In this document: one piece after another, positions 5,301 to 54,700 of the stretch
How the letters are laid out: each line of letters opens with the position of its first letter
How positions within the stretch are numbered: the stretch's first letter is position 1
Origin: Paraspadella gotoi
Taxonomy: Eukaryota; Animalia; Chaetognatha
Direction: 5' to 3'
Assembly: GCA_051294375.1 (NCBI GenBank)
Contig: CM119267.1
Location: 25,621,293 to 25,685,292 of the forward strand
DNA length: 64,000 bases
Notes under the pieces: model-generated
Told to the model about the DNA's origin: nothing
Database searches by the model: none
The model's input: only the letters and a program-made list of their open reading frames with translations
Program-made: the position numbers and the translations under genes

Positions 5301-7926
5301 AAAAAAGATGTCCGTCCGTGTCTGTCTGTCCGTCCGTCCATCCGTCCGTCCGTCCGTCCCATCTTAGCAAAAAACGTTTCGATGGAATCGTAAGAGTGGA
5401 AAAAAAAATATATATATTTCACTATTTGAACACCAATTACTCATGAGTGGATGGGGCGATTGATTTGAAATTTGTATTTGGGTAGAAAGGTGTGTGATTA
5501 AAGTGGAAATCAAGTTTTGATGGAATCATTTGAGTGGAAATGAGTTTAAATGGAAAAAAACAAAAAAACCTGTTTCATTAATTAAATGTAAATGCAGGAT
5601 GTATTAATAAATCAAATAATTAATCAATTAATCAGTCAATCAATCAAGTCAATTGTTATCGACATTATGTTGGACATAAACTCTCGTCGTAATTATTCTC
5701 ATCGTCGTCATTGCTTTTATCGTGGTTAGTGACGAAAAGACCTAAAAACAAACATTTGGGATCAAATTAATTAATTAATTGCTTAATTAATTAATTAACT
5801 TGAATTATTTAATTATTAATTAATTAATTAACTTGAATTATTTAATTATTAATTAATTAATTACTGATAATGATTGTGGGCAGATCCGACATTGTTTGCT
5901 CAAACTTGTTTATTACTTTTTGAGTTAAACTGTTACTATTAAAAATTCCTTCCTTTTCTCAGTCTTATGTCAAATGGTTATTGCATCATCTCCATTAGGA
6001 TAGATTTAGGGATGAATTTTAATTCATATGTCGCAAACAGAGTGGTATTAAAAATTCATTGATGCTGTAGATGTTCCAGAATATTCTTTTTATATTATAA
6101 AAGTAATAAGGCTCCGGGTAACCTTTCTGTGAGCAAAGTTATCATTTTTATTTACCTCTGGATCTATTATCAGAACCAAATATCAAACAAGTCTTAAAAA
6201 AAAAGAAAAATCAAAGATTTTGTTGCATCATCACATTAGGCAGCAATAACTCAAGCCTGGTTTACTTTATAGGGGATCAATCTTTTTCACTGCTTGCCAA
6301 GGATTAACTTTTTCCCCAAATCTGATAAAAAATATAATGTTAGAGATATAATAATAACAATAATGTGAGTAGTCCTCTTGATCAAAAAGAGGTGAAAAAA
6401 GTTGGAGACAACCTCTTTTGGAAGTATTTGTATGTATTAAATAATTTTATGCTGTTGAGAAATAATCTTTTTGTTCATTCCTAGGGAGGTCATATTACAT
6501 ATTAAAACCTATTTACCGGCTAAAAAATATATTTAACAATGAAATTAACCGACTTTTCCAAACCGCGACAATTTGTTTTCCATCATGGTATTCTTTCTCC
6601 TTCATTATCGCGATTGAGTCTTCCTGCCAGGCGGCTTCGACACGTCCATCCAAGGTTGGGGCAAGGAAGACGTTGACCTCTACACGAAATTCGTCACATC
6701 GAATCTGACGATTTTTCGATCGACGGATCCGGGAATCGTCCACGTCTACCACGAGATACACTGCGATGCCGCCCTCCCTTCCAGTCAGTACACTATGTGC
6801 GTTGGCACTAAGGCCTCAAGCTATGCTTCTAGTAATCAGGTACGACTCGAAAATTGGTTTTGTTTTGACCCAAAGAGAATCTGGTTTCCCTATCAATATA
6901 CAATAAAGTGGTATTATGTTATTAAAATTGTTGTATAAAAGGACCACTGTGGCGGTATATTCACACCGCCTCATGTCCACCATCCTCAGCCAAATCCATT
7001 GGCTCAGAGGGGGAACACACCATCCCAGGCGTAGTGTTCCATCCACAGTCCTAATGACTTTCCTCTGCGTTGGCAAAGCGAGACCGTCCTAGGGTAACCG
7101 CGCCAGTGACTGGAGGTGTCACTGAGGGTCGGAAGCCCCCAAAGCCAACAGTGAGATGCCCCATCCCAATGGGCATCACAGGCAACCCGGCTGTTTGCCA
7201 TAAGTGGTGAGCCCTACTATCGAACACGCAACCTTCTCAGGGTACGCTACGACAAACGCCTATGCCCTGCCGACTTCGGGTATGCTACGACAAACGCCTA
7301 TGCCCCTGGGGTACGCTACGACAAACGCCTATGCCCACAACTCGCTCTCTCTCTCTCTCTCTCCCACTATGGTAACAGTCTTGTCAGACACCTCTCAGGC
7401 TTGAGGAACCTGAGTGATGTCTTGGCAGGGGATCCTGTGGCGGTATATTCACACGCCGCCTCATGTCCACCATCCTTCAGCCAAATCCATTGGCTCAGAG
7501 GGGGAACACACCATCCCAGGCGTAGTGTTCCATCCACAGTCCTAATGACTTCCCTCTGCGTTGGCAAAGCGAGACCGTCCTAGGGTAACCGCGCCAGTGA
7601 CTGGATGCATCACTGAGGGTCGGAAGCCCCCAAAGTCAACAGTGAGATGCCCCATCCCAATGGGCATCAGCAGGCAACCCGGCTGTTGCCATACCACTCT
7701 ATTTTTAAATTTCATATATGAATAGTTGAATATATTTCTCTCATCCATTCATCGTCAGATGGCGGCGAAGGTGCTTCAAACGAAGGACCTCCTATTGTCG
7801 GCCGAAGACCGCGAGGCCGGTTTCGAAGCGGCCGAACCCGGAGATATTGCGGTGCAAGTTGCGGCCGGCGGCGGCGCTGACGGCGCCGTTTTTGACGAGA
7901 TTAAGGAAGTCGCCGCCGCACAGTGA
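2355..7926 (+). CDS. CHSY1: Chondroitin sulfate synthase (CHSY1-like), last four exons: 2355-2524, 2842-3037, 6631-6839, 7759-7926
   Basis: Spliced peptide LLFFCDVDMLF...VYFPIVYSQYDP...GYWRQFGFGI...GGFDTSIQGWGKEDVDLY...GIVHVYHEIHCD...MCVGTKASSYAS matches the CHSY/CSGALNACT C-terminal domain; GT-AG phases are consistent. Confidence 0.88.
2580..2825. repeat. Dispersed unclassified repeat (second copy ~40895-41160, partly duplicated at ~41221-41350)
   Basis: Shared segments ATGAAATT.GT.CAAC, CTCTTACAAGA, AAGACTCTCTC.CAGTCT.GTTTATT.ACTCCCA.AGTACCTGGCTTCCCT. Confidence 0.7.
3330..5195 (+). mobile_element. HINE/DINE-1-like (Helentron-associated) family A; other copies ~1990-2285 (3' end only), from 13700, 28360-29430, 40633-43797, 48877-49670
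   Basis: Sub-terminal inverted repeats ATCGTCGCAATCGC / GCGATTGCGACGAT, 5' partial IR GTTTGCGACGAT, (GTC)n microsatellite, inserted in T-runs. Confidence 0.75.
3957..4000 (+). ncRNA. Degenerate Penelope-type minimal hammerhead ribozyme
   Basis: AACG-CTGATAA-AGGC...GCT-GAAAC-AT-GTC-CGTT; stem I AACG/CGTT; core has a G->A change. Confidence 0.55.
5190..5910 (+). mobile_element. HINE/DINE-1-like family B; other copies 10383-12461, 17422-17879, 19406-23268, 23633-24863 (minus)
   Basis: subTIRs GTCGGATCTGC / GCAGATCCGAC, (GTCC)n microsatellite, 3' hairpin GTTTG-CT-CAAAC followed by TTGTT. Confidence 0.78.
7065..7151 (+). ncRNA. Twister ribozyme, type-P5 permutation, in 5' LTR; predicted cleavage 7095/7096
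   Basis: P5 GTTGGC/GCCAAC; P2 GCGA/CCGC; GA; T1 CCG with loop CGG; mini-P1 TCCTAGGG; U^AA; GC; P3 CAGTGAC/GTCACTG; P4 loop GTCGGAAGC. Confidence 0.8.
7556..7642 (+). ncRNA. Twister ribozyme, type-P5, in 3' LTR; predicted cleavage 7586/7587
   Basis: Same motif as 7065-7151; P5 GTTGGC/GTCAAC keeps pairing through a G-U wobble. Confidence 0.8.
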
Positions 7927-10258: not shown

Positions 10259-13200
10259 ATGCTTTTCTCCAAAAGCGTTCATCCGATTACTTTCCGTGAA
10301 TTCATGTTGGAGGTAGTTTACGCTCCAACTTTTGATCTTATTTCACCTCGTTTGTTTGTGAGTAGTAGTTTTTTCTTCTTTTTAGTCGGATCTGCTTTCA
10401 GCAGATTCCGACTCTATAATTCAGTTTATAATTCACTTTGTCGGCCCGTCATTCCCACCCCAAAATATTGTCGGTAAATCATTATCATATCAGAACCTCG
10501 AATTATGATAAATTATGCAAAAAAAATGTCCGTCTGTCCGTCTGTCCGTCCCCCCTTAGCAAAAAACTCCAATTACTCGTGATTGGATGGATGGATTGGT
10601 ATGAAATTTTGTGTGTGGGTAGGAAACTGTGTGATTAAGATGGATATAAAGTTTCGATGTAATCGTGCGAGTTGAAATTGGTTTAAATGGAAAAAACAAA
10701 AAAATATATTTCACTATTTGAACGCCAATTGCTCATGAGTGGAGAGGGCAATTGACTTGAAATTTTGTATGATGGTAGGAAAGTGTGTGATTGAGCTGGA
10801 TATAAAGTTTCGATGGAATCGTGCGAGTGGCAATGAGTTAAAATGGAAAAAATAAAAGTCATATTTACTTGAAGCATTTTTACTTAAATTTACTCAAATC
10901 AATACATTTCTGTCAATTGTGTTCAAAATTTTAAAAAATGAAGGCTTGACTATGCAGTTTTCACTTAAAAAACCAGTTCATTTGATTGCTTTATCAATCA
11001 TTAAAGATTGCAAGAATTTAAACTTTTTTTTTATTGTGTAGAGAAGACAAAAGGCTATCCGAAACCGTACTGATATGTATGATTTCTTATATTTTACAAA
11101 AGATCTAGCAGGCTTTTTGGGAAAATGGAAAAAACGGCCTGACCAGTCAATTTAAATACCATTTTTTGGCATGATAAAATGGAAATTTCGATCGCGCTCT
11201 ACCTCCGTTGGCTTCCCAAGACGACAAGCTTTCAGAATCTGCCCATATTGATATAATTTTTTTGGGCCGTGACTATGCAGTTTTGAATAAAAGTGAAATA
11301 TAAAGGAATCTTGATCGGAGCTTCGATTCGAACGATGCGCATCTCTATTATTAGGACTAAGCTCTGACGAAAAAAGTCAGAGGTTTTTTAAATATATTCT
11401 TTGACTGGCCAATGAAGAATGATGGCAATATTGCTATTTTTAAGTTACAAAAAAATCCGACCATAAATATAGAAAATATTAACAAAATTCTTTGGAAAAT
11501 CCACCCCTTCTTTGGAAGATTTTTGCCATAGAAGATTTTTCCCGAATCTGACTCCCGGTTGAAAACTCTTAGAATTCCGATCGTTAGCTCCTCTTTTACT
11601 TTTACTTTAAATAAAAATTTCACCAAAATGGACTAATTCACTTTAACATGATCGTATCATATTAAAATAACTAAATAAAATGTAAAGAAAAATTTTGAGA
11701 GCCCTTCAGACATATTGCTATCGGATTCCTGAATTCGAAGTTTATTGTAAAATGACAACATACCTTAAATGCGTTGACATTGTATTGAAGTTGAGAAATC
11801 CCTTTATTTTATATATAAAAATTGCGTCAAAAATATTTTCCCGAGCGGACCAGTCCATTTGAATCGAATGGTTCGATGTCAAAATGATGGTTATTTGTCA
11901 AGAGAAAAAAAATGCGAGCCCTTGAGATGTAACAGGATCGGAATCCACTGTTTTTACATCTATTTTTTACCTGAATTTTTCCCAGGGGCGTTGACATTAT
12001 TTGGTAGTCAGATTTTAACGAAAATCTCCATTGAAAAAGTCTTCCTCGATTTCTAAGAACGACGTAGACTCCTACTATTATAATGTTAACATACCCTAGC
12101 CCCGTTTACAATTTTTGAAAAGCAAAATTTCCTGTTCATTTCTATAGTAAAAACAATGTTTAAAAATTCTCCGGAGATGACTAGTGCATTTCCCCTGGCT
12201 TGTTTGATATTAAATCCTTTATCAAATGCCATAAGACGAATTTGGCTAGCTCTTAAGATATAATGCTATCGGAATCGTGTGTTTTTACAACTGTTTTTTA
12301 CCCGAATTTCTGGCAATCTCGTTTGCAATTTGGGTAGTCAGATTTTAACGGAAATCTCTATTAGAAAACTGTTCAATTTTTTTTTAAGCGAGATTCTCGT
12401 CTACTTCTATATTACCACTTAATTATCATAGGAAGATCCGACATTGTTTGCTCAAACTTGTTAATTTTGTGATTAGAATAAATAACTTAATATGGTGGAC
12501 TAAAAAATCCACCATCGTTCATCAGCGGCCATTGGTGTGCAGGAGGCAAGTCATTCGCCTCCCAAAAGTCCAGGGTTCTAGCCCGGTGGTCGCCTAGCAG
12601 TTAAGAGGGACGGGGCGCTTAACCCGCCTGTAACACCGTGTTACAGCCTGATCTGAAGCTCAGGGACTGCATATATTGAACGGTTCTGTCGCTCATTCAC
12701 AACAATTATTACTGTCTCTTCATTAATAAATTTAGTGATACTGAAAAGTCTCTTGTTTTTCTCAGACGAAACGCCGTTTTTCGACCGAAGATTATACAGG
12801 TTTTCGTATTCCCATCGTCACTGGTCAAACCAAAAAAGATCTAAAACGGATTTTAAGAGACAAAGAGACAAAGGATTATTTCGCATTTTTGTCCAAGTCG
12901 CTTAATCTGCCTGGACAACGTAAGAGAAAATAATTGCTATTATTATTTCAAATCTACATAATATTATTTTTTGGAATTTCCAAGAATTGGCGATGGTTTT
13001 GTGCCAACAACATCCCCCGATTTTGACCTTGATCAAAGACCGAGCCAATTTTGAAGTAAAGGTGCGAGAAATAAAAAAAGGGTCTCCCATAAGAAACGGT
13101 CTCACTTTACTTTATACCTTTACAGATTTCCCACCTAATGGAATTAGGCATTACCAAAGATCGTTTGATCGAGGCGCCGTCCATCCTCTCCGTAGATGAG

Positions 13201-16200
13201 GCGTCTGTGAGAAAATGTCTTCGTCTCCTGACTCGCGAGGCGCCGTCAGAGTTGGAGATGGTCGGCGCGCATCCGCGATTTCTAATCCCGTCAACGAATG
13301 AGGCGTCGCGTCTCGCCGACTTTCGTCTCTTCGCCGAAACCGTCTTCCCGTACGCGACCAACGCCGAGTTTATGTCTGAGACGTTGAAGACGTCGAAGAA
13401 GACTATCTATCAGTTGGCGGAGAAGAGCTTTGCCATCCTCGAGCGGGGGTTCCGCTACGGAGCCGCCATCGAGGCACACAAGGCGCAGGGACTGAGCCCC
13501 GCCGTCATTATCAAACACTGGTCAACTTACAGCTCAATGCGATCAACCGTCTTGAACGAACGGCTCGAGTTGCTCTCGCGTCTGCAGCCTCACGTGGCAG
13601 AGGACGTCATGGATTCCGGACAAGTCTTCGCCTCGTCACATCAATTCTCTATTTATTACGTAGGGAAAATCTAATGGGTTGTGTAAATTCTTCATTTTTT
13701 ATCGTCGCAATCGCTTTTGGGCATAAGTGGCGTAGGCGTCGTCGTCGTCGGCGTTCCAAATTATAGATCGCCTTTTTGATGATTAAATTTGGGTGTATGA
13801 AGCTGAAAATTTATATACAGCTTCTCATTATCGCTGTCATTAAAATTGGGTCAGGACAGTTTTGTTTACTTTTTATCAAAACAAACAAATATCCTTTATT
13901 TTTATGTCTCCTTCTCTCTCTCTTTTTTCTTTTAATTATATGTAGCTATCTCTCTCTCTTTTCCCTAGTGCTACAGCTCGCTTTTTCTTTATTCGAAAAA
14001 GTTGAGGGAGTGGATATCTCTCAAACTAGGAGTTGATATCAGCTCAGCTTTGAGTAATAGATGCAGGAACCTTAGGTTTATTGCCCGTTTGAAAGATTTT
14101 TAAAAATTCAAAAAAATTGCGCTCAGCACCCCAAAATTTTTTTTTACAATATTTGCTTTAACGCGGTTATTAATGAAGCTTGTCCTATCATTTTTTGCTC
14201 ATAAATACTCCGAGACGAGGCCTATATAATGATGTCATAAAATTTTTGAATTAATTTTATTTTTTTTGTTTTAAAAATTAAATCACTCAAAAAATAATTC
14301 AAGAGTATTCTTAAAAGGTGCAAGGTAATTAATTCCATTTTTATATAAAATGATACTTTAAAGAAGACCAGTTTTAATGAAAAACAAATTAAATTTTAAA
14401 AAATTATTTTAAATACCAAAAATATTTTTTGAAAATTATAAAAATATATCATGGTCTTAAAACTAATTAAAATATTTTAAAAAATTAATGGGTTTGAAAG
14501 AGGACATTATGCTGATTCCAAATCTGTTTTTGTTTTTTAAATTTGATTATTCGAATATTCGTTCCTGTTTTACAGGCTCATACATTTGCAAAAATTAAGA
14601 AAATCACCCCTTTTTCAAACCCTAAACTGAACGGGTCCATGTATTTGAAAAAAAAAAGAAATTAACTTTAAAAAAGTAATATCTTCTTGCTATTAAAATT
14701 TTAAATGAGAAGAAAAGATTAGCAAAGATATCAAAGGAAGAAATGGTATTATTTAATTTTTAATGAAAAAAAGAATAAGATTTATCTTACCATGAAGGAA
14801 AAAAAAGTGTCGCGGTTACTTTCCAGTTATTTTTCGGCATTTTAATGTAAGAATAAAAATAAATTTACAAGAAAAATTAAAAATTTTAAATTCAAGAAAC
14901 TTTGGCTTTTTGTGATTCATATAAGCTGTGTCTCATTTAGGTATGACAAAATTCCATGTAAAAGAAAATGCGTAGTCCAAAAAAATGCTTCCTTCATTTT
15001 TATCTTTTTTATATCTGTACTTTTTATTTATACTCATTTCCGGTTCTTTTTTATTACTTTTTGGGTTTAACCAATACTATTAAAAATCCCTGCCATTATC
15101 TCCATTAGGATAGATTCAGGGATGAATCTTAATTCCATCAACGGAATGGACCTATAAACGGACTTGGTTGGCCTAGTGATGTGATTGCTCGTCTCCTTCA
15201 CGAATCATCAGAATGCCGACCAATCACAGACCTTACTTCAACCTTAGAATGACCAATGACCGACAGAGGAACCGACGGAGGGATTGATGGTCATTCAATC
15301 AATCCCTCCGTTGGTTCCTCTGTCGGTCATTGGTCATTCTAAGGTTGAAGTAAGGTCTGTGATTGGTCAGCATTCTGATGATTCGTGAAGGAGACGAGCA
15401 ATCACATCACTAGGCCAACCAAGTTCGTTTATAGGTCCATTCCGTTGATGATTCATATGTCAAAAAAAAGCAATATTAAAAATACATTGATGCTGTAAAT
15501 GTTATAGAATATTATTTTTAAATTGTAAAGTATCAATAAAAGTTATAAGGTTCCGGGTAACCTTTCTGTAAGCAAAGTTATAATTTTTATTTACCTTTGG
15601 ATGTATTATCAGAATCAAGTATCAAACAAGTCCAAAAATAAAAAATAAAGATTTTGTTGAAGTGAAAGACAATGAATTATCACATTATGCAGCAACAACT
15701 CAAGCCTGGTTTACTTTATAGAGGATCAATCTTTTTCACTGTTTGCTAAGGATCATTTTTTGTCACAAATCTGATTAAAAATATTATGTCAGAGATATAA
15801 TTTCAACAATAATATGAGTAGTTCTTTTAATCAAAAAGAAGTGAAAACAGTTAGAGACAACCTCTTTTGGAAGTATTTGAATACATTGAAAAATTTAATG
15901 CTGTTGAGAAATAATCATTTTATTCAGTCTTAGGGAGGTCATATTACCTATTAAAACTTATTTGTTAGCCAAAAATTATATTTGACAATAAAATTAACTG
16001 GCTTTTCCAAACAGCGGAACTTTTTTTTCCATCATGGTAATAAGCAATTGTAGCGTTCTACCGCCGCCTGCACATTGAAGCCATGGNNNNNNNNNNGTTT
16101 AATTGATTTATTGATTGATTGATAGAGTAGTTAATTAAACGATTAATTTTTTTGCTTGCCTTCATTTTCAAATTTGAATAAATTTCAAATTCTAATTTTC

Positions 16201-19200
16201 ATTTTCGGTGGCTCATTATTTTTTCTCTGTCCTTAAAAAATCTTTGTTGGTCTCCTCCAAAAATCTAGATAGAGTAGGTTGCGCTCATTCTTTCATGGGT
16301 TCCAATGTCTTCATAATCATATTGTTGAGGTATAGTCAAATATCGAGGGTAAATAATAAGTGGCCAAGTATTTGGTTGACAAGTTTTATTAACGACGGAC
16401 AATGATTAAGGTGATGACAACGGTTACAACAAAGGTGATGATAATATAAATAATTTAATGATTATTTGAAGAAGAGTTGAGTTGAGTTTGGATGTTGGGG
16501 AGAATGGCGAGAGTTCTCTAACCAATTTTGACCGTCGATCCCTCCGTCGGTTCCTCTGTTCTTGATTGGTCAATCTAAGGTTTCAGAATCATTAAAATGA
16601 ATTTAATTTTTATTTATTCTTATGGGGTGTCATTAGTTTTAAAATTAATTATAATTTTGACTTAGTTTGAAACTCACCCTGTAAAGAGATTTCAGTAAAA
16701 ATAATTCTAAAATTTTATCTTGTATGTGCCCTATGATTATGGCTTCATTTTGGTACTATTGCCATCCCTTTATCTTTGTTCCTTCAAAAGATATTAGGAA
16801 AAATAAGTTTTTTCTCTCAACCTTACTTTTAATTTCTTTTTAAATAAAAATTTCGCGATGAAAACTGGACCAATTCACTTTACCATGTTGGTTTAATATG
16901 AAAAAATTGGTCAATAATAAAAAGAAAAATAGAACGAGCTCTAGGGACACAAGGCTTTTGGAATCTCATAATTCGAAGTACCATTTATAATGCTAACATG
17001 CCCTAATCCCGTTTGTAATTTTAAAAAAGTGAAATTTCCCTTTCATTTCTATAGTAAAAATGAGGTATGAAAATCCTCCGGAGACGAGTAGTCCATTTCC
17101 CCTGGCTTGTTTGATAGTAAAATCTTTATCAAATGCCACAAGAAGAAAGGAACGAGCTCTTGAGATGCAAAGCTGTCGGAATCGGGTGTTTTTACAACTG
17201 TTTTCTACCGGAATTTCTTGCAGGCTCGTTTGTAAAGTTGGGCAGTCAGATTCGAACGGAAATCTCTATTATAAAAAATTAAAAATGTTGAATTTTTTTT
17301 AAGCAAAATTTTCGCCTATCCTATTGCTTTTAAGATTTTTTAGGACAAGCGATGGTGTTCAAATTTCTACATTAGATGTTTAAGCAAAAGTTTGAAATTA
17401 GTTTCGACAACTATTTGTTTTTAGTCGGGTCTGCTTTCAGAAGATCCCAACTCTATTTTTCACTATTTGAACACCAATTACTCATGAGTGGATGGGGCGA
17501 TTGACTTGAAATTTTGTATTTGGGTAGAAAAGTGTGATTAAACTGGAAATCAAGTTTCGATGGAATCGTTTGAGTGGAAATGAGTTTAAATGGAAAAAAC
17601 AAAGAACCTATTTCACTAATTGATTATGCTTCTTTTTATTTTAAATGTAAATGCAAGATGTATTAATTAATCAAATAATTAATCAGTTAATTAATCAATT
17701 AGTCAATTAATCAATATAATTAATCAGTCAATTAATCAATCAAAACACACATTTCTGATCAAATTATTTAATTGCCTAATTAATTAAATAATTAACTTGA
17801 CATAATTATTAAATTGAATTAATTATTAATTACCGATAATGATCGTGGGCAGATCCGACATTGTTTGCTCAAACTTGTTATTAGAAAACGTAGATGTTTC
17901 GGTTTTAACTGCAAGCTTTCATCAGCGTCAATTAGTTTCAAACTTCTGCTTAATTAAACACACAACGAAAAGAAAGAATTATATATAATTATATATATAC
18001 ATTAGATGTTAAATGATAGAAATTTGAAGAACATATTTGATTTGATTTAATTGCTCACCATTTCTTTGCTCTTTGGATCCAGACGAAGGCTCTGAGGAAA
18101 ATCCTCGTCCAAGATTTTCCTCCATCGATCCATCAAAAGGTCGCCTTCGTCGCCGAGCAACTCGAGGTCCCTCAAGACCTCGTGCTGGACTTTGTCGAGG
18201 TCTACGACTCAGCGGCGAAGTTGCTCTGCATCTCGGAGAAGAAGATCCAAGAGGTCATTCGCTTCCTTAAGGACTCAGGCTTCAGGTGGGATGGGGCGGG
18301 GTAGTAAATTTGCTTATAAATTTATAAGAATAATGATCGATTGAATCAATGATCATTGCTGAAGAGAAAACGTCTATTATGTTGTTTGAATTATTGATGT
18401 GAAATAAATATTTTGGGCTTTTTATTGTCGAAATAACTTGCGCTTGCGCTTGCTGACGATTATGGGACGATGGTCTCCATAAATGGCATCTGTAATATGC
18501 AAATTAGTTTATACCATCTAGGAAAAAAGTATATCACATTTTTAGTAGAGGATATCTACTCGAAAACTTATTTGATTTAAAAAAAAATAAGTTTCCGAAT
18601 CTACATTAAATTTTTTTTCAGTAGCTTCCTTCCATTTTTCGTAGGTCAAATCGTTAAGAAGTTACAAGCAAAAAAAGATTGTTACTTCAAATGGAAAATA
18701 TAAAAAAAATATATTTAATTTTTTATTATTTTTGGTATTTCGTTATTTGTCTTGTTTTTTTTTTTAATAGTTATTTTTAATATGATGGCCATGATAAAGG
18801 CATTGTACCTTTTTTTTTTTTGGTCAAAAAAGTGTTATTATAGCTCGCAGAAAAGATTATAACATCAACATTGTGGCTGAAAAGAATTAAAAGTGTGGAA
18901 AAACATTTCACCGTCATACCTCAATTCGCTCTACGAGAGCATGCCCAGACGAATGCAGGCAGAGGAAGGGTACACTTAATATAATAATGTTTTCCCCATA
19001 TTTTGTATATTTTATATTGAATAAATAAACTACACGGATTTCAAATAGGAATAAAATAAAATGATCAAATACTGTGGCTAAATTATTTGTTAATGCAATT
19101 TCAGATTTTGCACCCTGGTAAAAAACATCGCTGACGTTTTTTATTTTCCAACTCCTAGTAGTCCAGCTTGCTTACTTTCTTAGTTATGTGCTCATCAATG

Positions 19201-20757
19201 TCATGGTCGCATTTTAAAAAAGCCAATTTTATTGCATTTGAGTAGGACCTTACTGTTATAAAATATATTTTTATGAACAAAAATGAAAATTTTGAAAATT
19301 TTAGTTCATTTTACAGATAGACATTAGAGTATGTGTCTGAGCAATCTGAATGTCAAAATCTTATTTACAACCACAATGATAGCCATTTTCATTTTGTAGT
19401 TTTTTAGTCGACTCTATATTATAGACTATAATTCACTTTGTCGGTCCGTCGGTCCGCCCCCTCACTCTTGTGGGGCATTCACATATATCATGTCAGAATA
19501 TCAAATTATGATAAATTATGCAAAAAAAAACGATGTCCGTTCGTCCGTCACACCTTAGAAAAAAAATCCAATTACTCGTGATTCAGGGTTGGCATTAAAA
19601 AACCTACCCAAAAAAACCCAGCTATCGTTTTTACAAAGCTTAATATATAATTTAATTATAAAAAATAACCCTAAACCTATGTTTTACATGTTTACTATCA
19701 GTAGCACTTTCGTTGCTGGCTTCTGTACCATTTTCCTTATATTAAGTAATTCTAATTGTGAATCGCAAATTATGTTAAGAGCAACACATTAAAAATGATT
19801 GCTATTCTTTCGAATGCAGGAAAATAATATATTGACGTCAGGAAAAAATCTTAGCTTAAACACCTTAATATTTTATTGAATTAACTCAAATATTGCATCC
19901 GAACATCAAAATTTATTTTTAGCCCAAAAGACTAGTTAGTTCGGCAAAAACATGTACTAAAATGTACTTCAATTTTTAATGTATTAGTAATTTATATAAA
20001 TGTTTATGATGTATATTTATATCAAATTATTTTGAGTATTTAATTAATATTTTCTAATAAAACAGGTTTTATTCAGAAAATATAATATTCATATTTATTA
20101 CATTTCTGTATAGCATAAAAAAATTAATTAATACTATTATTAAATATTATCAGTATATTTTTATATATTTTTATCAGTAATCACTTAAGAAGTATAAATA
20201 TTTTAAATTTGTATATTAAAAAGAATTAATATGACAGTCTGCAATCTATAATTTAAAAAGACCCTAAAAACCCAATAAAACTAAAAAAAACCCAGTGGGC
20301 TGGGTTCTTTTAAAAAAAACCCAGTCGTGATTGGATGGATGGATTGGAATGAAATTTTGTGTGTGGGTAGGGAAATGTGTGATTGAGTTGGATATAAAGT
20401 TTCGATGGAATCGTCTTAGTGGAAATGAGTTTAAATTGAAAAAATAAAAAAAACTGTTTCACTAATTGATTATGCTTTTTTTCTTTTTATATTAAATGTA
20501 AATGCAAGATAAGATGTATTAATTAATCAAATAACTAATCAGTTAATTAATCAATTAATAAATAATCGGTCAATTAATCAATCTATTAATTATTCAATCA
20601 ATCAATAAATTTATTTAGTTATCTATTATTAGGAGAAAAACAGTTTTGGTTTGACAACGATTTTTTGACATAATTAGCCAGACATGTTTCGGCTCAGTCA
20701 GTTAGAGCCTTCATCAGTGCTTTGACAATCAATATTGAAGTCTCTGTTTAAGTAAGT

Positions 20758-20794
<37 letters not shown>

Positions 20795-23700
20795 TTGAGG
20801 GAGAGTTTCCAACAAAGAATAAGGTAAGGGACAGTGGTCAGATGTGAGGACAGCTGAAGGTGAGGAGAGGGAAGAAGTAAGTCTTTGAAAAATGAAAAGA
20901 GAGTGGGAGAGAGAGAGAGAGCAAAGCAAAAATAAAACAATACATTTAGCAATGTTCAACAGAGATAAAGTGCAAAAATAAACCTAAAGATAAACTGAAA
21001 TTAAATGTGAACAATAAAAAATGAATTAGTAATAAAGTGAAATTTTAAATAGAAAAGTAAGTGGTGAGGGATAGATAAGTGAAGAAAAGTGAAAGTAAGT
21101 AAAAGAAAGAGCTCAAAAATGAGCTGGCCCCCCCCCGGCCGGGCAAATGGAGGACGTTGACGATAAGGTCGGGTCATTGGCCTGTCATAGGTTGCGAGGG
21201 TATACTTGTAGAGTTTGACATGCTGGGATCCGGAAGAGATCCACCTGGGAAAATGCCGAGTGCTACTCGTATATCCCTTTGGCCTGATAAGCCTGCCGAT
21301 AGCCCTCCTCTCACCTGACGGTGAGGCAGGCAGTTGCCTGTTCTGGCCTGTTTTGCTACAGGAGATACAGACTCCTCTCCCTCCTCCTGAAGCCGTCGTT
21401 TTGGGCGACGCTCGGCGCGAGGAGAGTCGCGCCAAGTTGCTACAGGCTCGGAAAGGTATCGGACATCCATTGCCTGCTGAGAGGCCTCCGCCTGACCCGT
21501 TGAGTAAGGACGGGGGAATCATTGTGCGGTTGGGGTGGCTCTGGGCGTTTCCTACCACCATTTGGATAAGCGAATCATAGCTTGGAGGGAGGTCTAATTG
21601 TCCTCCATCACGGTTCAGAGAGGGTTCGAGAGCTTTGATGTAGATTGCCTCTCTAATACCTCTGGAAAACCAGTTTTGGTCATGGGACAGCACGAGACAG
21701 TCAGTTTCTCTGAACAGATGGCCAGAATTTGCCGTGTGCTCGGCAATGGCCGATAAGTAATGACCACGTGGGTCCCAATATGGCTTTGAGTGCTGCTTGA
21801 ACCGATCTGTCAGAGACTTTCCTGTCTCGCCCACGTATGCTGCTGTGCAGGGTTGGTTGCCCTTCCCTGCACAGGCCGCCCAGTAGATGGCTCCTGATGT
21901 TTTCGGTCTGGGGATTTTGTCTTTCGGTTTCACCAGTTGCTCACGTAAGGAGCCGCGGGTCGTCACTGCACTGGAGATCCCCTGCTTTGCCAGCACCCGC
22001 ACCAGTGCTTCAGTGATCCCCTGGTGGTAGGGGAGGGAGACATGACCCACGTTCCTGAGACGCTTCTGCTTATCTCCCACTTGCGCTGTGGTGGGCGCGG
22101 TCGGTCCTTCAGCAGCAAGGTCTCGTTCGTCCTCCTGGGGGGCGGAGGTTGAACTTGCGTCAGCAGTTACTTGGGCAGCCCCTAGGTGGCCACTGCCCTC
22201 AGCCAGGTTCAGCAGGAACCTTACCTTCTCGTAAGCCCACAGAGGGTAACCATTGAGCGCCAAGGCTCTTTTGACATGCTCAAGCTCGGCGGCCTGGAGC
22301 TCGGGGGTCGACGGAATCAGCTGAGCTCTTCTGGTAAGGGATCTGACCGTGGCGAGCTTGTGCGACAAGGGAGCATGCGAATCAAAGGGAATGTATTGAT
22401 CAGTATGCGTTGGTTTGCGATAGACAGAACTCCAATGAGCCGCCCTCTTTGCGCTTTATAAGCACATCAAGCATTGGAATTTGACCATTCTCCTCCTTTT
22501 CGCAAGTCCACTTGATACTCGCTTCGATGCTGTTCAAATGGGTCAGAAGGGTATCAACCAGATCCCTTTTCACGGCCAGAATAGTATCGTCTGCTTTCCG
22601 ATACCAGAAGAGGACTGACTCTGCCCCATGCAGAGATCGAAAAGAAGCCAAAGCTTCCACCTCATAGTCCTCCATATAAAAATCTGCCAGAGGACTTGAA
22701 GCGGACTTGCCCATCCCTAAGCCACCAGGCTGGGCATAGTACCGTCCATCGAACCTGAAGTACGCCAGTTCCAGGTCGAGCCGCAGCAATGCCATGATAT
22801 CATCCAATTGCACTGGCGTACGCTCGTGCAACAACCGGTCTCCCTTCAGGCGGCGCTCTGCTGAGGCTAACGCCAGTCCCTGAGGGATATTAGTAAACAT
22901 GCTTGTTAAGACGCACGAGACCAAGAGATGAGTATCTGGCACTATGATATGCTGCAACTTTTCCGTCAGATCAAGAGAAGATCAACAATGAAAAGAGAGT
23001 ATATACATTATGTTATCTATTATTTAATTATTCAATCAATTTATTTATAAATTAATTATTTAATCAAGTCAATCATTATCGGCATTATTGTCGTCAACGC
23101 CATCATCGTCGTCTTTCCTTTTGTCATGGTCAGTGATGAAAAGACCTAAAAACAAACATTTCGGATCAAATTAATTAATTTTTTAAATTATTTTAGTTTA
23201 TATAGTTTGTATTAATTAATTACCGCTAATGATCGTGGGCAGATCCGACATTGTTTGCTCAAACTTGTTTAGTTAAAACTTATAGAAAATAAAAATTTTA
23301 GCTTTGAAAAAAAATTGTCTAATTAAACCTCGAAATATATTAATAAAAAATTTTTTGCATGCTCCTAAATTATTATACTAACTAATGAATATAAAAGAAA
23401 TTAAAATGTTCTTCTCAATTTTTTTTACAATAAATTTAAAATTGAATTATCAAGTAAGAGGGGAAAAATTTGGCAAAAAAAGCTGCTGAAAAGCAAGCGT
23501 ACCAGTTGTTATGATATAAAGTATTTTCAACTTGTAATATCAATATCAATCATATTGAGTTAGTTAAGAGTAATAACAAATCTTTTCATTTCACTCCGAT
23601 TTGAAATCTGTGTATTGAGCAATTAGAAAACAAGTTTGAGCAAACAATGTCGGATCTGCCCACGATCATTATCAGTAATTCATTAATTAATAATTGAATT

Positions 23701-32500: not shown

Positions 32501-35500
32501 TACGCCCTCCAAGCGTTGGACATTTATACGGTCAACCTGAGCTCAACGACTGGCCAGCCGACCATCCGTCCGGCGGCCGTGCAATGTGTTCGAACCAAAG
32601 AGGAGAAGGAAGTGCTGGATCACTTTGCCGGCGTCTTCACCATGATGAACCCTCAGACTTTCAAGGAGGTCTTCACCGTTACAATCGAATTCATGGTGGA
32701 ACGAATCTACCACAACTACGCCCTGCAGATTGTGGCCAACTCTTTTTTGGCCAACCTCACAGCCTCGGCCTCCTTCGCCACCATCCTCGTCGAGTATCTA
32801 TTGGCGAGAATGCCCGAAATGGGTACTAACATGGAGCGCTCTAATCTTTATCTTAAACTCTTTAAACTTGTCTTTGGCTCTGTCTCTCTTTTCGCGGCCG
32901 AGAACGAGCAAATGCTCAAGCCTCACCTCCACGCCATCGTCAATAAGTCCATGGAATTGGCGATGACGGCGAAAGAGCCTTTCAACTATTTCCTTCTTCT
33001 GCGCGCACTTTTCCGTTCCATTGGTGGCGGAAGTCACGATCTGCTTTACCAAGAGTTTCTTCCACTTTTGCCCAACTTGTTGCAGGGCCTCAATTGTCTG
33101 CAGAGCAGTCTTCACAAGCAGCACATGAAGGATCTTTTCGTCGAGTTGTGTCTGACGGTTCCAGTGAGGCTGTCTTCCTTATTGCCCTATTTGCCAATGC
33201 TGATGGATCCCCTTGTTTCCGCGCTGAATGGATCTCAGACGTTGGTGTCTCAAGGCCTTCGAACTTTGGAGCTCTGCGTTGACAACCTGCAGCCGGATTT
33301 CCTTTATGAACACATTCAGCCCGTGCGCGCGGAGTTGATGCAGGCGCTTTGGCGGACGCTGCGCAACCCTAACGATAATATCGCTTTCGTCGCCTTCCGC
33401 GTTCTGGGAAAATTCGGCGGCGGAAACCGAAAAATGATGCGCGAGCCGCAGCAGATCGCATTTAATAAATGGACGACGCCGGAACCGAGCGTTCTTATCC
33501 ATTTCCAGGATCGCAACGTGCCCGGAAATTCTCCTGATCCGATCCAATTGCCCGTCGAGAAGGCAGTGGAAGTCGCTCTCGCGGCACTAAAATCATCTTC
33601 CTCTGATCCTTTTGATCGCAATGAGGCCTGGAACGTTATTCGCTGCTTCATCGTCTCCCAGATAAACCTAGACGACTCTCGTTCAAATTTAGAGCAATTG
33701 TTTAAACATCCCTCGTTCCACGAAGGTCCTATCTATTCATTCAGTCCACCCTACGAGTGTCCCGACCCGCACACCCGCCAGGTTCATTTGGATGCGTTGT
33801 CGGGTCTTTTCGTCGCGGCGGCAATTAAGGAATTACGATCTCAGGTCCTGCCGACAATGGCCTCTCTCGTTCGGCACTACACTATGGTGGCCGTGTCTCA
33901 ACAAGCCGGTCTATTCGCTCTCGGCGCCGAGAAAGCCGCCTCAATGTTTTTCATGGATCCCCACGTGATCGTCGACGCTTTGGCGGCTGTCATGGGGCAC
34001 GAGGAAAAGGAACTCTGTAAACCAGGGAACCTCGCGCTCTTCTGGATGTTGGAAACCGCCGTCACTTTGGTGGGATCGAAGCGACGCGCTGCCCAGTTGC
34101 CCCTCTTCGAGTATTTGTCGCAAAGTATGTGCGCGCTATGTTACGACCGGGCCTGGTATGCCAAGCTTGGAGGTTGCCACGCCATTAAGTTCCTCTACGA
34201 AAACATGGCGCCTAAATGGGTATTAGAACGCGCCTTTTCATTCTTGAAGGCGCTTCTCTTCGTCATGATGGATCTGACCGGAGGGGTCTCATCTGGCGCC
34301 CTCGATATGGCTAAGTCCAATCTGAATCAACTCCTCATCCTTATCGCCAAAGAGCCGTTGGTTGAAACCGGGTCTCATAGCGTGGAGGACAAGAATCACC
34401 TTTTAGAGGTCCAACGCAAAGCTCTTTATGAAGTGACTCATGAACTCGTTCGCCAAATCACCTCGCCCAACACTACTGTCAGGGATGAAGCGATGCGCTC
34501 TCTCAAAGTATTGGCCGATAATCAGTCCCCGCCAAAGACGGTGACGGAGGTCATGTCTCCCCACAAAGAGCAGCTGGTCGAAATGGTGCCGCCGAAGAAG
34601 CACCTGCTTCGCCTGCAACCCGTCAGTGCTCAAATCGGCATCATGGAGGGCAACACTTTCTGCAATACTCTGCAGCCCCGCCTCTTTGCCATTGATCCCA
34701 ATGTCAACGAGAGCAAACCTCACGTGATCTTCGTGACGGAGCTGATTACTCTGTGCGACACGGACGACGCCTCCCTGATGAAAGTCCCTTGCTACAAGAC
34801 GGTCACCAACCTGATTCCCTTGCGCAAGTCAGCGCTCAGGGCCCTCGCAGCCTGCCATTACATCCCGCAGCACAGAGAGAAAATCTTTGGAGTTCTTTAC
34901 AAGGCGATCAACTTGAACACGGAACTGCAAGAATTTGCGTTTGAATGCATGAAGAATTTCATCAATGGATGCAACGTGAATTTTGAGCAGGTCGTTGTAT
35001 TTTTGAATGTTTAAAAAAAAGTTATGCTGTGGCGAATCCTAAATTCGCCTCCCGTATAGCTTGGTGAAACACAGCTCGTCCCATTGGCTTGGACAGCTGA
35101 GTACTCATTCACCAACCGTGAGTTCCGGGTTGAATCTCCTCACGGTCACGCTGGTTAAGTGTGCTGGTGTCGGCGTAAACACGCCAGTGACGTGGGGTGG
35201 TCACTGCAGGTCCAAAGCTCTGAGCGCCGGCTGTCGGGAGATGTCTCACACCCGGGGCATCACGCATGTCTCCCTGATGCCATAATGAACCTTTTTAATT
35301 TAAATTATTTTTGTTTAATTTAAATTTTATTTTAATTTTATAAGCTTCGGGTCTGGTTTTGGGAGTATTTTATTCGACCTTAATTTCCCCTCAGGTTCAC
35401 ACGGCCATACGTCCCTTGCTTCAGCTTCTGGGCGATTATCAAAATCTGACCCTCAACGTGATCCAGCGTCTCTCCTACTTGACTCAGCTATTTCCCAACA

Positions 35501-40554: not shown

Positions 40555-43500
40555 AGGAGGATTTAGCCTGCCGTCCAATTCTCCTTTTCCTCTTCTTTTT
40601 CTTTCGTCCTCCTCCTGCCCCTCAGTAAATTTTTATCGTCGCAATCGCTAAGGCTCTACGTACGATCGATGTCTTTTAGACAACGAAATCTAAACTTCAA
40701 TAATTACCATCTTTTTTGATCTCATTAGTTAGTATGAAGCTTACTTCATTTAAAAAAACGGTAGTCTCAAGTTATCTCATTCTTATCACTTAGAACTTCC
40801 CAGGTAAATTTCTATGAGTTAAAAATACGGTAAGACATGATTTCTTCAATGATTGTTTAGCTAATCTCATTAACTGTGTAATTTTAGATATAAGTATGAA
40901 ATTGGTACAACCAATATAAAAATTATTCCATTCATTTAATAAATAAGCTATCTTGCCCCTAACTTTGGACAGGCTTAGGTGGTTTAAGGCCTCCATCACT
41001 CTTACAAGATAATGACATAGCAGGTCCCTACAAGCTTTCAATCAAGACTCTCTCACAGTCTCGTTTATTCACTCCCAGAGTACCTGGCTTCCCTATCAAT
41101 GAAGTGGTATAATATTTCAAAGAATGTTTCAATTGTATGAAAAGACCACTCCCTTAAGTATTAGATCAGGGAATACTTATTGTACTCCGCACTAGCATCA
41201 AAATACAAGGAGCTGAATTTTATGAAATTGGTACAACCAATAAAAAAATTATCCATTCATTTAATAAATAAGCTATCTTGCCCCTGACTTTGGACAGGCT
41301 CAGGTGGTTTAAGGCCTCCATCACTCTTAACAGATAATGACATTGCAGATATAAGTATGTTCGAATTTTTATGGTATAGATAAATTTTAAAGATCGAATT
41401 CCTCATGAGAATCTTCACGTCTTTTACTTACATAAAAGTTTTTAGGTAAGACGCCACATTATCTGATACAATTTTTTTTTTCATACGCTTTCCCTGATTC
41501 TTTTTCTTCACTTCTTTTCTTCTCTTTCTTTATATTTTCCTCTTCCTCTTTTCTCCCTTACTTCTCACTCTGTCACTTACAATTTTTCGGCCCCTACCTT
41601 TTTCTGCCACTCATGCACTTTCCTTACCTTTTTTCTCTCCTTCTCTCTTTCCCTTTCTTTTCCCCTCTTTTTCTTTCCAATTTTCCCCTCATTTCCTACC
41701 TTTTATATGTCTCACTATTTTTTCCCCCATTTGCTTATTTTTTTTTCCTTTGGCCCCCTCTTTCATTTTCTTCCATTCTCCTTTTCTTGTTTCTCTTTCC
41801 TCTTCCCTCTCACTACATTTACATTGAGCCAAATCAAAGAAATTCTTTAATAAGCATATTAAGAGAGAAAATGAACGGTAACGCATGATTTTTATTTCAA
41901 TTTTGGTTGCCTAGCAAATTTAGTAAATCGACAGATTTTGCGGAAAATTTTTCCGCAAAATCTGTCGATTCTCAGAAAAAACAAGTCCTGACGCTTTCCA
42001 TTGGCTAAAAGGATGCGGTTTTTTTTTGTTTTATCAACGTCAGTAAGTACCCCATCTTTTAAAACCAATAAATGAGTTGAAAATATTTTCTTTATCATAA
42101 ATAAATGCAAGTCACAAAAAGTCACAAATTAAAAGTTGTCTTTAAAAATTATTTGTGGCTAAACGAAAAGAGTTTTTTTGATAATTTTGTAGGTGTTGAA
42201 AGCTTATTCTGTGGACTATATTTTCTGTTAGTTTAAACCAATTTAAACTATTTTTGTTTAATAAATTATAATAAAAACTAAAACTACGACTTTTTGACTT
42301 GTCAATTTTAAAATTAATTTATAAGTGAACTATGAATGATATAAGGAAAATATTTTACTCAAGGTGAAGAAGATAAGGAAGAAAGGAATTCCAAAAGAAA
42401 AAAAATTTTCTCAACTTTCCTTGGCATTCAAATTTGAAGACAAAGTGAAAATGGACAAAAATGGACATGATTTTTTTTCTTAAAAGTTGCAAAAATGTTA
42501 CTCTTATATGATTAGAAATAGCTGGAGATGGTTTTAACCAATCCGTACTTTGGCCTAATTTATATTATGGTGCAAATTAAATTAATTTTGTTAATAGTAA
42601 CTGAACAATACTGGAAAAAGTAGTTTTTTCTCTGAATGCAAGGATCGTAAGCAGAGGCCTAAGCGTTTGCGACTATATAGTAACACTTTTGCGCATAAGT
42701 GCGTCGGGCGTCGGCGTCGTCGGCGTTCCAAATTATAGATCGCCTTTTTATGATTAAATTTGGGTTTATGAAGCTGAAAATTTATATACAGCTTCTCATC
42801 ATCGATGTGCTTAAAATTGAGTCTGGACAGTTATTAAATATGTTTTGTTTACATTTTATCAAAACAAACAAATTTTCTCTCTTTTATTTTCATATTTCTT
42901 CTCTCTCTCTTTTTCTTTTAATTACATGTCTCTCTCCCTCTCTCTTTCCCTATTCACTGATTCATAATCATAGGGAAAAAAAACGAGTCTGCAGCTGGCT
43001 CTGCAGGGCATATCTTTTTCTTTATTTTCTCCTGCTGCTTTTGCTGCTGCCTTTTGAGTCTGCAGCTGCTCTGCAGGGGCTCTCTTTTTCTCTCTTTTCT
43101 CTTGCTGCTGCCATTTGATTTCTTTCTTTTCTCTCTCTCTGTGTTTTTATGAAAAAAAAAATTGAATTGGGATTGAACTCGTAAAATTAGGCATCGCATT
43201 TGTGCATGTTATCATTTTGCTATAGTAACATCGGGTTTTTATTTCACTTTATTCTTTACTTCACTTCGTCAGTCTGATTCAAGTTTCACTTTGTCTTTTG
43301 TCTGGGAATGATGACAGTGTTTAGAGAGGTCGCATTCGATCAAACTGCTCCCTTATGCGTGCTTAAAGTAAAACAAAAGTACCTTCAATAATGTTACTCC
43401 AGTCTTAGCACTTGCTAAAAATTAAACTCGAAAATAAGTTATTTTACTGTTTTATATTTATTCTTTTGCCAATGAAAAAGGTTTTTTTTTTGTTTTTTGT

Positions 43501-51700: not shown

Positions 51701-54700
51701 GTCTACGTAGGTCAATTTTAAAAACATATTTGGAATCCTCAAACGCATATTTACTAGTAACCTGACGACATCAAGCGACGGAAGTTCGGTTCTCTTATTA
51801 TATCAAAAAGAAAAATTAATTCTAATATTTTTAGTTAATATCTATCAATTTGAATGAAAAAGAAAGCACTAGATATATTGCATGTGATCGAACAATGTTA
51901 TCGCAATAATAATTTTATGTATTTTGTAAGTATTTTAAGTATTTTTATTCCGTGAGTAAAATAACTTTTTTATTCGCTAATTTTTATCTCGGACGCTTAA
52001 CGCCAGACTTCCCTATAATTAGTGACTTACTTAATGGTTTGAAGGCTACTTGACTGGCTTCTTGGTAAGACTAATGAACTAGAGAGTTAGGCTTGCAATG
52101 TATTCAAGTATAGACCTATGAAAAGATAGCAATTACATGTTATTATCTTAATGAGTGCTAAACCTAAGTGTTGTCATAGTGGTATAGAATATAATATATT
52201 TTTCTTACTAAACATAGAAAAGTCAGCTGGAATCACAAGAATAATTAAAGTAATAAACTAGCAATTATGATATTTAATTCATTAATTGTTTAGCTATTAA
52301 TTGAACCACAAATAAACATGATCATTTACTCAAGTAAAATATTAATATTAAACCCTTAAGGCAATAGAACAAAAATTTATCAAAGCTTAATCAGAATACG
52401 ACAATATGCAAATGAGATTGAGGAACTCAATCTTATTTCAGATAATTCACTAATTTATCTGCTACACACACCCCTTTTCTTTAATATTCATTCTTTTTCT
52501 TTTTTTGCTGTCTTTTCTCTTAGTCCATCAAAGAGTGGCGTAAATTGCCGCACATCGTCTCTCAAATCCACATCCCCTGGCTTCAAGCTGCTCAACAGAT
52601 CATGGAGCTCCAAGAAGCGGCTCAGATTTCCCAAGGCCTTCAGGTGCGATTTTTTTCTTTAAGTTAATCAAGTCTGGATCGATTTTCACGACTTAAAACG
52701 CAGACTGCAAACATCGGGAGATCTTCCGCCCTTCACGACATGAAAGCGATCGTGAAGACGTGGCGAAATCGCCTCCCTCTCGTTTCCGATTCGCTCTCCC
52801 ACTGGAGCGACATCTTCACTTGGAGGCAACATCACTATGAGCTCATCGTTAATCACTACGAAGCCCAGGCTCACGACGCGCAGCAGGCGAGGACAGAATT
52901 AAGAGATTGTGGCAGATGATGTTATTATTAAGATGTTATTATTTGAATTTTTCTCAACAATAATTTTCTGATTTATTTGGTCTAACGGTTGTATGAAACT
53001 TTTTTCTCAGCAACAGAATTCGATGCTCGGCGTTCACGCCTCCGCCCAGGCGATCATTCATTTCGGGAAGATCGCTCGAAAACACGGGCTGCACGGGGCC
53101 TGCCTCGATTCTCTCAGTCGCATCCACACCATCAAATCTGTTCCCATCGTCGACTGCTTTCAGAAAATTAGGCAACAGGTTCGAATCGCCATAGTACATC
53201 ATTGCAAAATCGCTTCTATTAATTAATATTAAATTGTTTTCGAAACTAACAAAAGGTTAAGTGTTACCTACAAATGGCCGGCGTGATGGGCAAGAGCGAG
53301 CTTCAAGAAGGCCTCGACATCATCGAAGTCACGAATCTCAAGTATTTTACCAAAGAGATGACGGCGGAATTCTACGCTCTTAAGGGAACGTTTTTGGCGC
53401 AAATCGGACGATCCGAAGAGGCGAACCAAGCCTTCTCCGCCGCCGTGCAAATGCACGACACACTTGTTAAGGCCTGGGCGCTTTGGGGCGAATATCTCGA
53501 GTCGATCTTTGTTCGCGAGCGCTCGATCGAATTGGGCGTCTCCGCCATTACGTGCTACCTTCACGCTTGCCGACACCAGAATGAACCTCGATCGCGAAAA
53601 TATTTGGCCAAAGTTCTTTGGCTGTTGAGCTACGACACCGAGGATTGTCACTTGGCCGAAGTCGTCGACAAATACGTCGCTGGAGTCCCGCCTGTTTTAT
53701 GGCTTCCCTGGATTCCCCAACTGCTTACTTGCTTGATTCGAAACGAGGGAAAACTCATCTTGAACCTCTTGTACCAAGTCGGTCGCATGTTTCCACAAGC
53801 CGTTTGGTTTCCAATCCGCACCCTGTATTTGACGCTCAAGCTGGAACAGCGCGAACGATACAAATCTTCCGAATTCGCCAAAGCCATGGCGGGCTCCGTC
53901 GGTTGCGCGCCTTCTCCGGCCGACGTCGTCCAATCCCCGAGTATGCCGGAAGGGGCCGAGCCTACGGGCGGACAAGGCCCTACTGTGGGTCCCGGCCCGA
54001 TCAAGGCCACCCCTTCCATGTGGCGGTGCTCACGCATCATGCAACTTCAGCGAGAGTTGCATCCGACGATGTTGGCATCTTTGGAAGGCATCCTGGATCA
54101 GATGCTTTGGTTCCGCGAGAATTGGTGCGAAGAGGTGATCCGTCAGCTTCGCCAGGCTCTCGCCAAATGCTACAGCATCGCTTTCGAGAACCGCGCCTCC
54201 GTCGCTGAAGCGACCATCACTCCGCATGTGGCCAACTTCATCAGAAAGCTCGTTCTCTCCTTCGGAATCGGGCTCGAGGCCGGATCTCATTCTATCTCGT
54301 CTTCGTTCAGCGCCACCGCTACAGAATCGTTGACCCGTCGCGCCCCAGCCACCACTCAGGACCCTCTCTTCCACAAGATGAAGACGCAGTTCACGGCCGA
54401 CTTTGACTTTGCCGTCGCCGGCTCTCAGCGCCTCCACCGCGTCATTGGGAAACTAAAAAAGTGGATCAAGATTCTTGAGGCGCGAATCAAGACGCTGCCC
54501 AAGAGTTTTCTCATCGAGGAGCGTTGCCGCTTCCTCTCTAACTTCACCTCCTCTACGGCTGAGGTGGAGTTGCCGGGCGAGAGTCTCCTGCCCAAACACA
54601 ACTACTACGTTCGCATCGCGCGCTTCTTACCCAGAGTAGAAATCGTGCACAAGTACAAGTCGGCCGCCCGGCGCATCTACTTACGCGGACACAACGGAAA

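Follow-up and report, generated by a model that had tools for sequence, protein, structure and literature searches.

Can a short LTR element of an animal carry a self-cleaving ribozyme in both of its LTRs, and how would such an element be copied? The question is raised by a non-coding LTR element of 746 bp (6948-7693, + strand), which is located in an intron of an animal gene. The window, i.e., the whole 64-kb stretch of DNA analyzed here, also encodes TRRAP-like, PNPO and SCO proteins. Among the 120 PNPO matches listed, those with a named source all come from animals, with identities of 56-57% or lower; the 10 best matches share 57-65%. The host is accordingly placed in a sparsely sampled animal lineage. 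The features of the element and its surroundings are the following.

6840..7758, +: GT-AG intron of a chondroitin synthase-family (Pfam CHGN) gene, from a contig join in run X9, the open frame and Pfam
6944..6947, +: left TSD, CCAC, from the sequence
6948..7202, +: 5' LTR, 255 bp, TG...TA; the family ends agree with the loose ends of contigs
7096..7586, +: predicted excised unit, 491 nt, 56% GC (inferred)
7205..7225, +: PBS-like motif, the complement of which reads as a CCA end and then the complement of a T-loop word; shared with sister families
7240..7336, +: three internal repeats of 28 nt
about 7345-7364, +: CT microsatellite behind the internal repeats
7427..7432, +: short purine run, weak PPT candidate
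7436..7693, +: 3' LTR, 258 bp, with the second twister (7560-7640) and its predicted cut at 7586/7587
7694..7697, +: right TSD, CCAC, from the sequence

Architecture, insertion site and dispersal of the element

The element almost certainly belongs to an LTR family. An earlier note on this DNA had described two LTRs of about 256 bp around a non-coding centre, a 4-bp TSD CCAC, a PBS-like sequence and a purine tract. The LTRs (255 and 258 bp) were confirmed; they agree at 248 of 253 aligned bases, apart from small indels, and enclose a centre of 233 bp. Their termini are TG...TA rather than TG...CA. The TSD was found at 6944-6947 and 7694-7697. The PBS-like sequence TGGTGAGCCC begins at 7205, past a spacer of 2 nt behind the 5' LTR, and its CCA end stands 3 nt closer to the T-loop word than in the canonical tRNA spacing between the 3' CCA end and the T-loop word. 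The purine tract did not hold up as such, being a run of only about 6 purines which stops 3 nt ahead of the 3' LTR. A stop-free frame of 142 codons (7155-7583) crosses the repeats. No hammerhead core is present inside the element (6948-7693). With a size below 1 kb, two LTRs, a PBS-like motif, no coding capacity, a short TSD and multiple copies, the element has the features of a TRIM.

One contig of run X9 joins 6835 to 7755. This join equals the loss of the GT-AG intron 6840-7758 and leaves the CHGN frame open, so the element lies in sense orientation in a host intron. Run X9 is RNA by a program's guess; none of the listed runs is on record as RNA. The position of this copy, in sense within an intron that is spliced out in X9, was counted against the retrozyme model set out below.

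Dispersal was analyzed in Logan contigs from 7 of the 12 listed public runs. The earlier check for other dispersed copies was answered by many distinct flanks at exact ends. Among the loose ends listed for runs X1, X2 and X5, 62, 74 and 54 contigs, respectively, leave the element at exactly 6948 into varied flanks and 105, 129 and 95 leave it past the LTR 3' end; further exits at 7693 were counted in X1 (41) and X2 (37). The element family is real, selected and dispersed. The flanks of the departing contigs are AT-rich and heterogeneous (agreement 0.42-0.54), and the majority letters ATAT adjoining both ends suggest a target preference. In X1, contig depth is 180-280 on the flanks and 0.35-1.37 million on bins of the 5' LTR, values which are sums over overlapping contigs and give no copy number.

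A 41-nt box (7195-7235), comprising the LTR end and the PBS, is common to other families, which diverge on both sides of it in the contigs. No coding partner sharing this box or the PBS was recovered from the metagenome and viral collections scanned. In the metagenome collection the twister pattern gave no match and the PBS word 4 matches, all by chance. Scans of the viral collection for relatives gave 8 chance matches in some cases and none in others, and the twister descriptor described below gave none in at least 120 viral loci.

The twister fold and its sister families

The 5' LTR contains a twister fold with the following parts, all on the + strand.

7069..7149: twister fold, type-P5 order
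7069-74/7144-49: P5
7078-81: P2'
G7082-A7083: GA
7084-86: T1'
7087..7094: palindromic P1 segment, 8/8 self-pairs, predicted partner 7578-7585 in the 3' LTR
7095..7096: predicted cleavage site U^A, positioned by homology to the RF02684 consensus and the layouts in PMC8501958
7098-7101: P2
7102-03 with 7135-36: T2
7104-10/7118-24: P3
7125-28/7137-40: P4
7129-36: L4

The earlier note had read every type-P5 twister element in both LTRs. All of them are indeed present and in order, with the permutation that places the termini at P5; what it had called a mini-P1, however, forms no hairpin, and in family A, to which the element belongs, P2 and P4 contain one A/C mismatch each. The U^A steps at 7095/7096 and 7586/7587 lie 491 nt apart. 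The motif shares with the type-P5 twister (RF02684) the order of elements, U^AA, GA, both pseudoknots, L4, P2 and P4. The core nucleotides, i.e., the cleavage-site AA, the general-base G, GA, the GC/GC of T2 and L4, match the RF02684 consensus and the table in PMC8501958, whereas T1 differs from the consensus and from the Schistosoma table on both sides at 2 of 3 pairs.

A descriptor for the type-P5 order, written after the motif was seen, matches only the two LTR twisters in the window; it gave no match in 20,000 LTR shuffles and 1 in 30 shuffles of the whole window. Rfam gave no match for the element (6948-7693) at the gathering score. The check with the twister-P5 model, which the earlier note had proposed, came out negative for both LTRs: no Twister-P5 row appears at E<=10, where a weaker P5 match could be masked by clan overlap. 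Partial twister-P1 matches of 15.8 and 15.6 bits, one per LTR, are below threshold. The P5 model misses the motif because its consensus contains a P1 hairpin of 8 bp and lacks P3, whereas the LTR motif has a palindrome as P1 and a P3 insert. Unlike RF02684, it thus carries a palindrome of 6-8 nt in place of a P1 hairpin of 6-11 bp, and a real P5 stem closes the fold. Among authentic type-P5 control loci, 19 of 31 pass the Rfam P5 threshold. The descriptor parses 15 of these 19, which is no measure of sensitivity since the control loci were picked by shared words.

Energy calculations are less favourable. In each lone LTR the twister fold lies 9.8-9.9 kcal/mol above the nested MFE, with pseudoknots uncounted. 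Pair probabilities are about 0.02 in P2 and P4; values this low in both helices at once were seen in none of the 15 parsed Rfam-positive controls.

The fold can be compared with that of sister families in the window. Family B was found via a weak BLAST match, and covariance models built from copies of families A and B revealed families C and D.

35028..35284, +: family B, solo LTR of 257 bp with the termini of family A, flanked by ATGC/ATGA
35150-35231, +: family B twister, palindromic P1 at 35168-35175
12493..12673, +: family C, probably a short solo LTR with uncertain ends
12597-12670, +: family C twister, palindromic P1 at 12614-12619 (E 3e-4)
40899..41346, -: family D, non-LTR-type element with two twisters 325 nt apart (E 0.0014 and 0.0037)
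41273-41336 and 40948-41011, -: family D twisters, palindromic P1
41347-41359 and 40886-40898: family D TSD, 13 bp

The flanks of the family B solo LTR agree at 3 of 4 TSD positions. Its LTR is identical to the family A 5' LTR in 141 of 269 columns (52%). Within the twister, 17 of 52 paired positions have changed while all 26 pairs are kept, both pseudoknots included. Random placement of the pairing was never as good (0 of 500,000), and redrawing the changed columns alone was as good in 1,220 of 500,000 cases. A plain MAFFT alignment of the two families shows 7 two-sided pair changes, 2 of them in pseudoknot T1, and none of 500 shuffles reached as many. The predicted cut is located 148 and 149 nt from the LTR start and 107 and 108 nt from the LTR end in families A and B, respectively. 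GA reads GC in family B, a change which is reported as tolerated in twister (PMC11662667). The nested MFE rod was also considered as the conserved fold and rejected, as it shows no two-sided change outside P5 and loses 7 of 19 non-P5 pairs.

In family C every helix pairs, with other letters. Family D also keeps all helices with other letters, its T2 being compensated, and has neither LTR termini nor a PBS. Altogether, six twister motifs of four families occur within the 64 kb. A third covariance-model round found nothing new in the window at E<0.01, and 100 control loci, taken from 120 viral loci preselected for core words, gave no match at this threshold. On authentic P5 twisters the covariance model shows weak recognition (best E 0.002-0.007). 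A termini-like pair at 52908-53193 was rejected as a further element; it spans an exon and is without a twister.

Variation between copies was seen in the contigs as well. Among the variant rows listed for the DNA runs X1, X2 and X5, the common variants inside the twister map to the P3 loop. A contig of a diverged subfamily in X10 carries 6 substitutions, all upstream of the twister and none inside; its P3 loop has lost 4 nt.

The covariation among the four families directly supports the twister fold, which is very probably a conserved feature of the LTRs. Cleavage by the twister in this family is predicted with good, if somewhat lower, confidence.

The palindromic P1 and the proposed cycle

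In all four families, T1' and U^AA are separated by a segment of 6 or 8 nt that is fully self-complementary and free of a hairpin. In the 5' LTR (7087-7094) a hairpin would cost +2.7 kcal/mol and cannot form, and the duplex energies across the four families are -8.3 to -11.0 kcal/mol. By contrast, the 16 Rfam-positive P5 loci that were compared (3 unparsed loci excluded) yield 15 distinct P1 segments, all of them hairpins of 6-11 bp and none of this kind. Given the outer pairs, a palindromic P1 is expected by chance at about 0.14 per family, and the families may share ancestry. Two adjacent central bases of the palindrome are changed and compensated in family B; for the inner palindrome pairs of A against B alone, the chance of survival is p 0.19.

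The palindrome, which the earlier note had missed, suggests a double twister formed across the two LTRs. In fold energies of the two-LTR RNA, this form gains 8.0 kcal/mol over two monomers and lies 12.3 kcal/mol above the MFE, pseudoknot terms omitted. The unconstrained MFE of the same RNA already swaps the P5 partners. P1 is described as dispensable in twister (PMC5408937), so the pairing may be optional. Imperfections in P1, P2 and P4 are also reported as tolerated (PMC11662667). On balance we predict, with moderate confidence, that the two LTR ribozymes pair with each other. A lone LTR or a finished circle, each with a single palindrome, would then cut poorly.

The reading we favour, again with moderate confidence, is a twister-based retrozyme, in which the paired folds excise a 491-nt RNA that is circularised and likely copied by a Ty3/gypsy element. 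Transcription would run through both LTRs. In the RNA a nested double twister would form, the 5' half of one LTR's ribozyme completing the 3' half of the other's round the 8-bp P1 duplex. Cuts at 7095/7096 and 7586/7587 would leave 5'-OH and cyclic-phosphate ends, and an RtcB-type host ligase would join the unit 7096-7586 into a circle. The cut RNA would have no terminal repeat, and tRNA-primed reverse transcription round the circle would restore two LTRs. Integration with a 4-bp TSD would be carried out by a Ty3/gypsy partner, which is suggested because of the length of the TSD (PMC10886601). Precedents have been described. For animal retrozymes, dimeric hammerheads with a palindromic loop and circularisation by RtcB are reported; in amphibians, hammerheads with a weak helix III and such a loop cut efficiently as dimers (PMC7229834). 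Twister ends serve as RtcB substrates in the Tornado system (PMC11263348). In the model described for plant retrozymes, the circle is reverse-transcribed and a Ty3/gypsy partner carries out the integration (PMC4918200).

A circle-based cycle as such is fairly likely. The 491-nt unit shows no unusual degree of structure (z -1.06), contrary to described retrozyme circles. In X9 the ratio of LTR to internal depth is no nearer to 1 than in the DNA runs and so gives no hint that circles prevail, although contig depth is no gauge of circles. A 506-nt contig of X10 running from PBS through interior and LTR to PBS was rejected as a circle, as graph collapse of the two LTRs explains it equally well. 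If cutting is dimer-gated, full-length elements would be excised and circularised, while solo LTRs in introns and finished circles would be spared.

Four other explanations were weighed. A retrozyme-like cycle in which each twister cuts alone, the palindrome being a mere linker or an optional helper, is unlikely, although it survives best. P1 is reported to be deletable without loss of activity (PMC5408937, PMC5113685), and a linker of 6-8 nt may suffice for the monomer fold. Against this, self-complementarity is kept in all four families, the compensated central bases of family B among them, and the energies favour the double form over the monomer fold.

Slightly less likely still is an active twister that merely trims linear RNA within ordinary TRIM replication, with no circle involved. 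For example, transcription could start within the 5' ribozyme, and the twister of the 3' LTR could make a 3' end that replaces polyadenylation. The sequence of the 5' LTR, when scanned, contains neither AATAAA nor ATTAAA, which would fit, and a twister is described as trimming the 5' end of the linear Perere-3 RNA in Schistosoma (PMC8501958); the contigs also showed no circle. However, any terminal repeat would need a start no more than about 12 nt upstream of the cut, and the TATA-like word in the 5' LTR, weak as it is, stands far upstream at 6956. The palindrome and the two-twister family D would also be left unexplained.

A passenger role, in which a twister taken over from a non-LTR element (Penelope-like or other, of the family D type) has ceased to matter for the LTR element, is improbable. 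The same palindromic twister does occur in the long-TSD family D within the window, and family A has its two A/C mismatches. The 26 of 26 pairs kept between LTR families of 52% identity speak against it, as does the X10 subfamily, in which the 4-nt loop deletion is the only change inside the twister.

We regard as practically excluded a local tandem duplication that happens to contain a twister-like motif, to which the Rfam scores far below threshold would point. It is refuted by the dispersed flanks at exact ends and the covariation between A and B. The empty shuffles (0 of 20,000) also speak against it, as do the six motifs from four families in the window, compared with none at E<0.01 in the 100 control loci.

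Relation to known elements

The twister-based retrozyme favoured here is closest in architecture to the plant LTR retrozymes (Cervera, Urbina and de la Pena 2016, PMC4918200), which are described with a ribozyme in both LTRs, a non-coding interior, a PBS, a 4-bp TSD, solo LTRs and a circle corresponding to the unit between the cut sites. It differs from that description by a twister instead of a type III hammerhead, by its animal host, by a PBS-like motif that appears not to be of the tRNA-Met type and by a weak PPT candidate. It is also smaller (746 bp, LTR of 255 bp, unit of 491 nt compared to about 700). The element resembles an LTR retrozyme by architecture and is not a member of the class as defined, as it contains no hammerhead, is not from a plant and its circle is predicted.

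With the metazoan non-LTR retrozymes (PMC7229834; bioRxiv 10.64898/2026.07.22.740005) it shares the animal host and a short unit between ribozymes. As in the elements of PMC7229834, a weak helix with a palindromic sequence would be rescued by the dimer, with RtcB circularisation as the model. Those elements are described differently in other respects, as tandem repeats with long TSDs and type I hammerheads and without LTR, PBS or PPT (PMC7229834). Family D has their architecture, but with twisters in place of hammerheads.

TRIMs, including the animal Helenus, are likewise reported as below 1 kb in size, with two LTRs, a PBS and no protein, and the 4-bp TSD is that of gypsy-dependent animal TRIMs (PMC10886601). 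The cargo of the LTR is a ribozyme fold here, unlike the tRNA- or 5S-derived promoter described there. The twister T-variants of Perere-3 in Schistosoma mansoni offer a link to an animal retroelement and a reduced P1; they are described as type-P1, single and at the 5' end of an autonomous non-LTR element, with neither LTRs nor a circle (PMC8501958).

In the open-access literature searched, neither a twister-bearing LTR element nor a twister dimer was found. The reviews and the 2026 preprint, as far as they treat the subject, present LTR retrozymes as plant and hammerhead based and the animal ones as lacking LTR, PBS and PPT. The permutations described as tested in the CHiTA study (PMC11662667) are type-P1 only. 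Possible, though somewhat short of probable, is the broader reading that an animal lineage independently evolved dimer-gated twister LTR retrozymes and that the same module drives non-LTR elements in the same genome. If true, the retrozyme cycle of cutting at both LTRs, circularising and using the enzymes of an LTR retrotransposon would not be tied to hammerheads or to plants. An animal would have arrived at it anew with a different ribozyme, and the engineered Tornado system would have a natural counterpart. Eukaryotic type-P5 twisters would gain a candidate function.

The palindromic-P1 twister, with six copies in 64 kb, defines a form which is missed by current Rfam models, and a natural double twister of this kind would be open to direct testing. 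If animal genomes give rise to plentiful small circles carrying twisters, this would also be relevant to how viroid-like RNAs arose. An enrichment of type-P1 twister matches is reported for Copia and Gypsy elements of plants (PMC11933835), and twister-P1 circles have been reported from metatranscriptomes.

Family D, a twister-bearing element

Among the type-P5 twister families of the window, family D is represented by one element.

40886-41359 including TSD, (-): family D element, 448 bp, 13-bp TSD

Two type-P5 twisters with a palindromic P1, in which a self-complementary segment replaces the usual P1 hairpin, are predicted in this element at a spacing of 325 nt. Family D looks like an animal non-LTR retrozyme in which the ribozyme is a twister. 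The element is located antisense within an intron of a TRRAP-like gene.

LTRs of families A, B and, probably, C

35028-35284, (+): solo LTR of family B, the sister family to A
12493-12673, (+): family C copy, probably a solo LTR of short length

The family B solo LTR lies in sense orientation in an intron of a TRRAP-like gene, and its 3' portion is similar to loose contig ends in the public sequencing run X10. In family C, P2 of the twister consists of three pairs and a bulged A, as is also the case in family D.

In the focal LTR element (family A), positions 7195-7235, comprising the 3' end of the LTR and the PBS box, are the only part common to at least two other families in runs X9-X12, one of which could be its autonomous partner. 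A small hairpin 5' of the twister (7047-7059) preserves its pairing despite changes in the X10/X12 subfamily. Several further LTR hairpins of family A have counterparts at corresponding positions in family B.

Outside the window, a below-threshold type-P5 twister with P3 present (L141:145-213) carries a C/A mismatch at the P2 base identical to that of family A. Two P5 twisters (L129 and L135) lie 6.9 kb apart on one contig.

Other elements in the window

20700-22981, (-): broken Penelope-like element
15136-15450: near-perfect palindrome, 315 bp, 96%, MITE-like or fold-back

The RT and GIY-YIG-like frames of the Penelope-like element were identified by eye and gave no match in a Pfam search. 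It contains a minimal hammerhead core near 20717, and similar cores are found near 17925 (-) and 808 (+).
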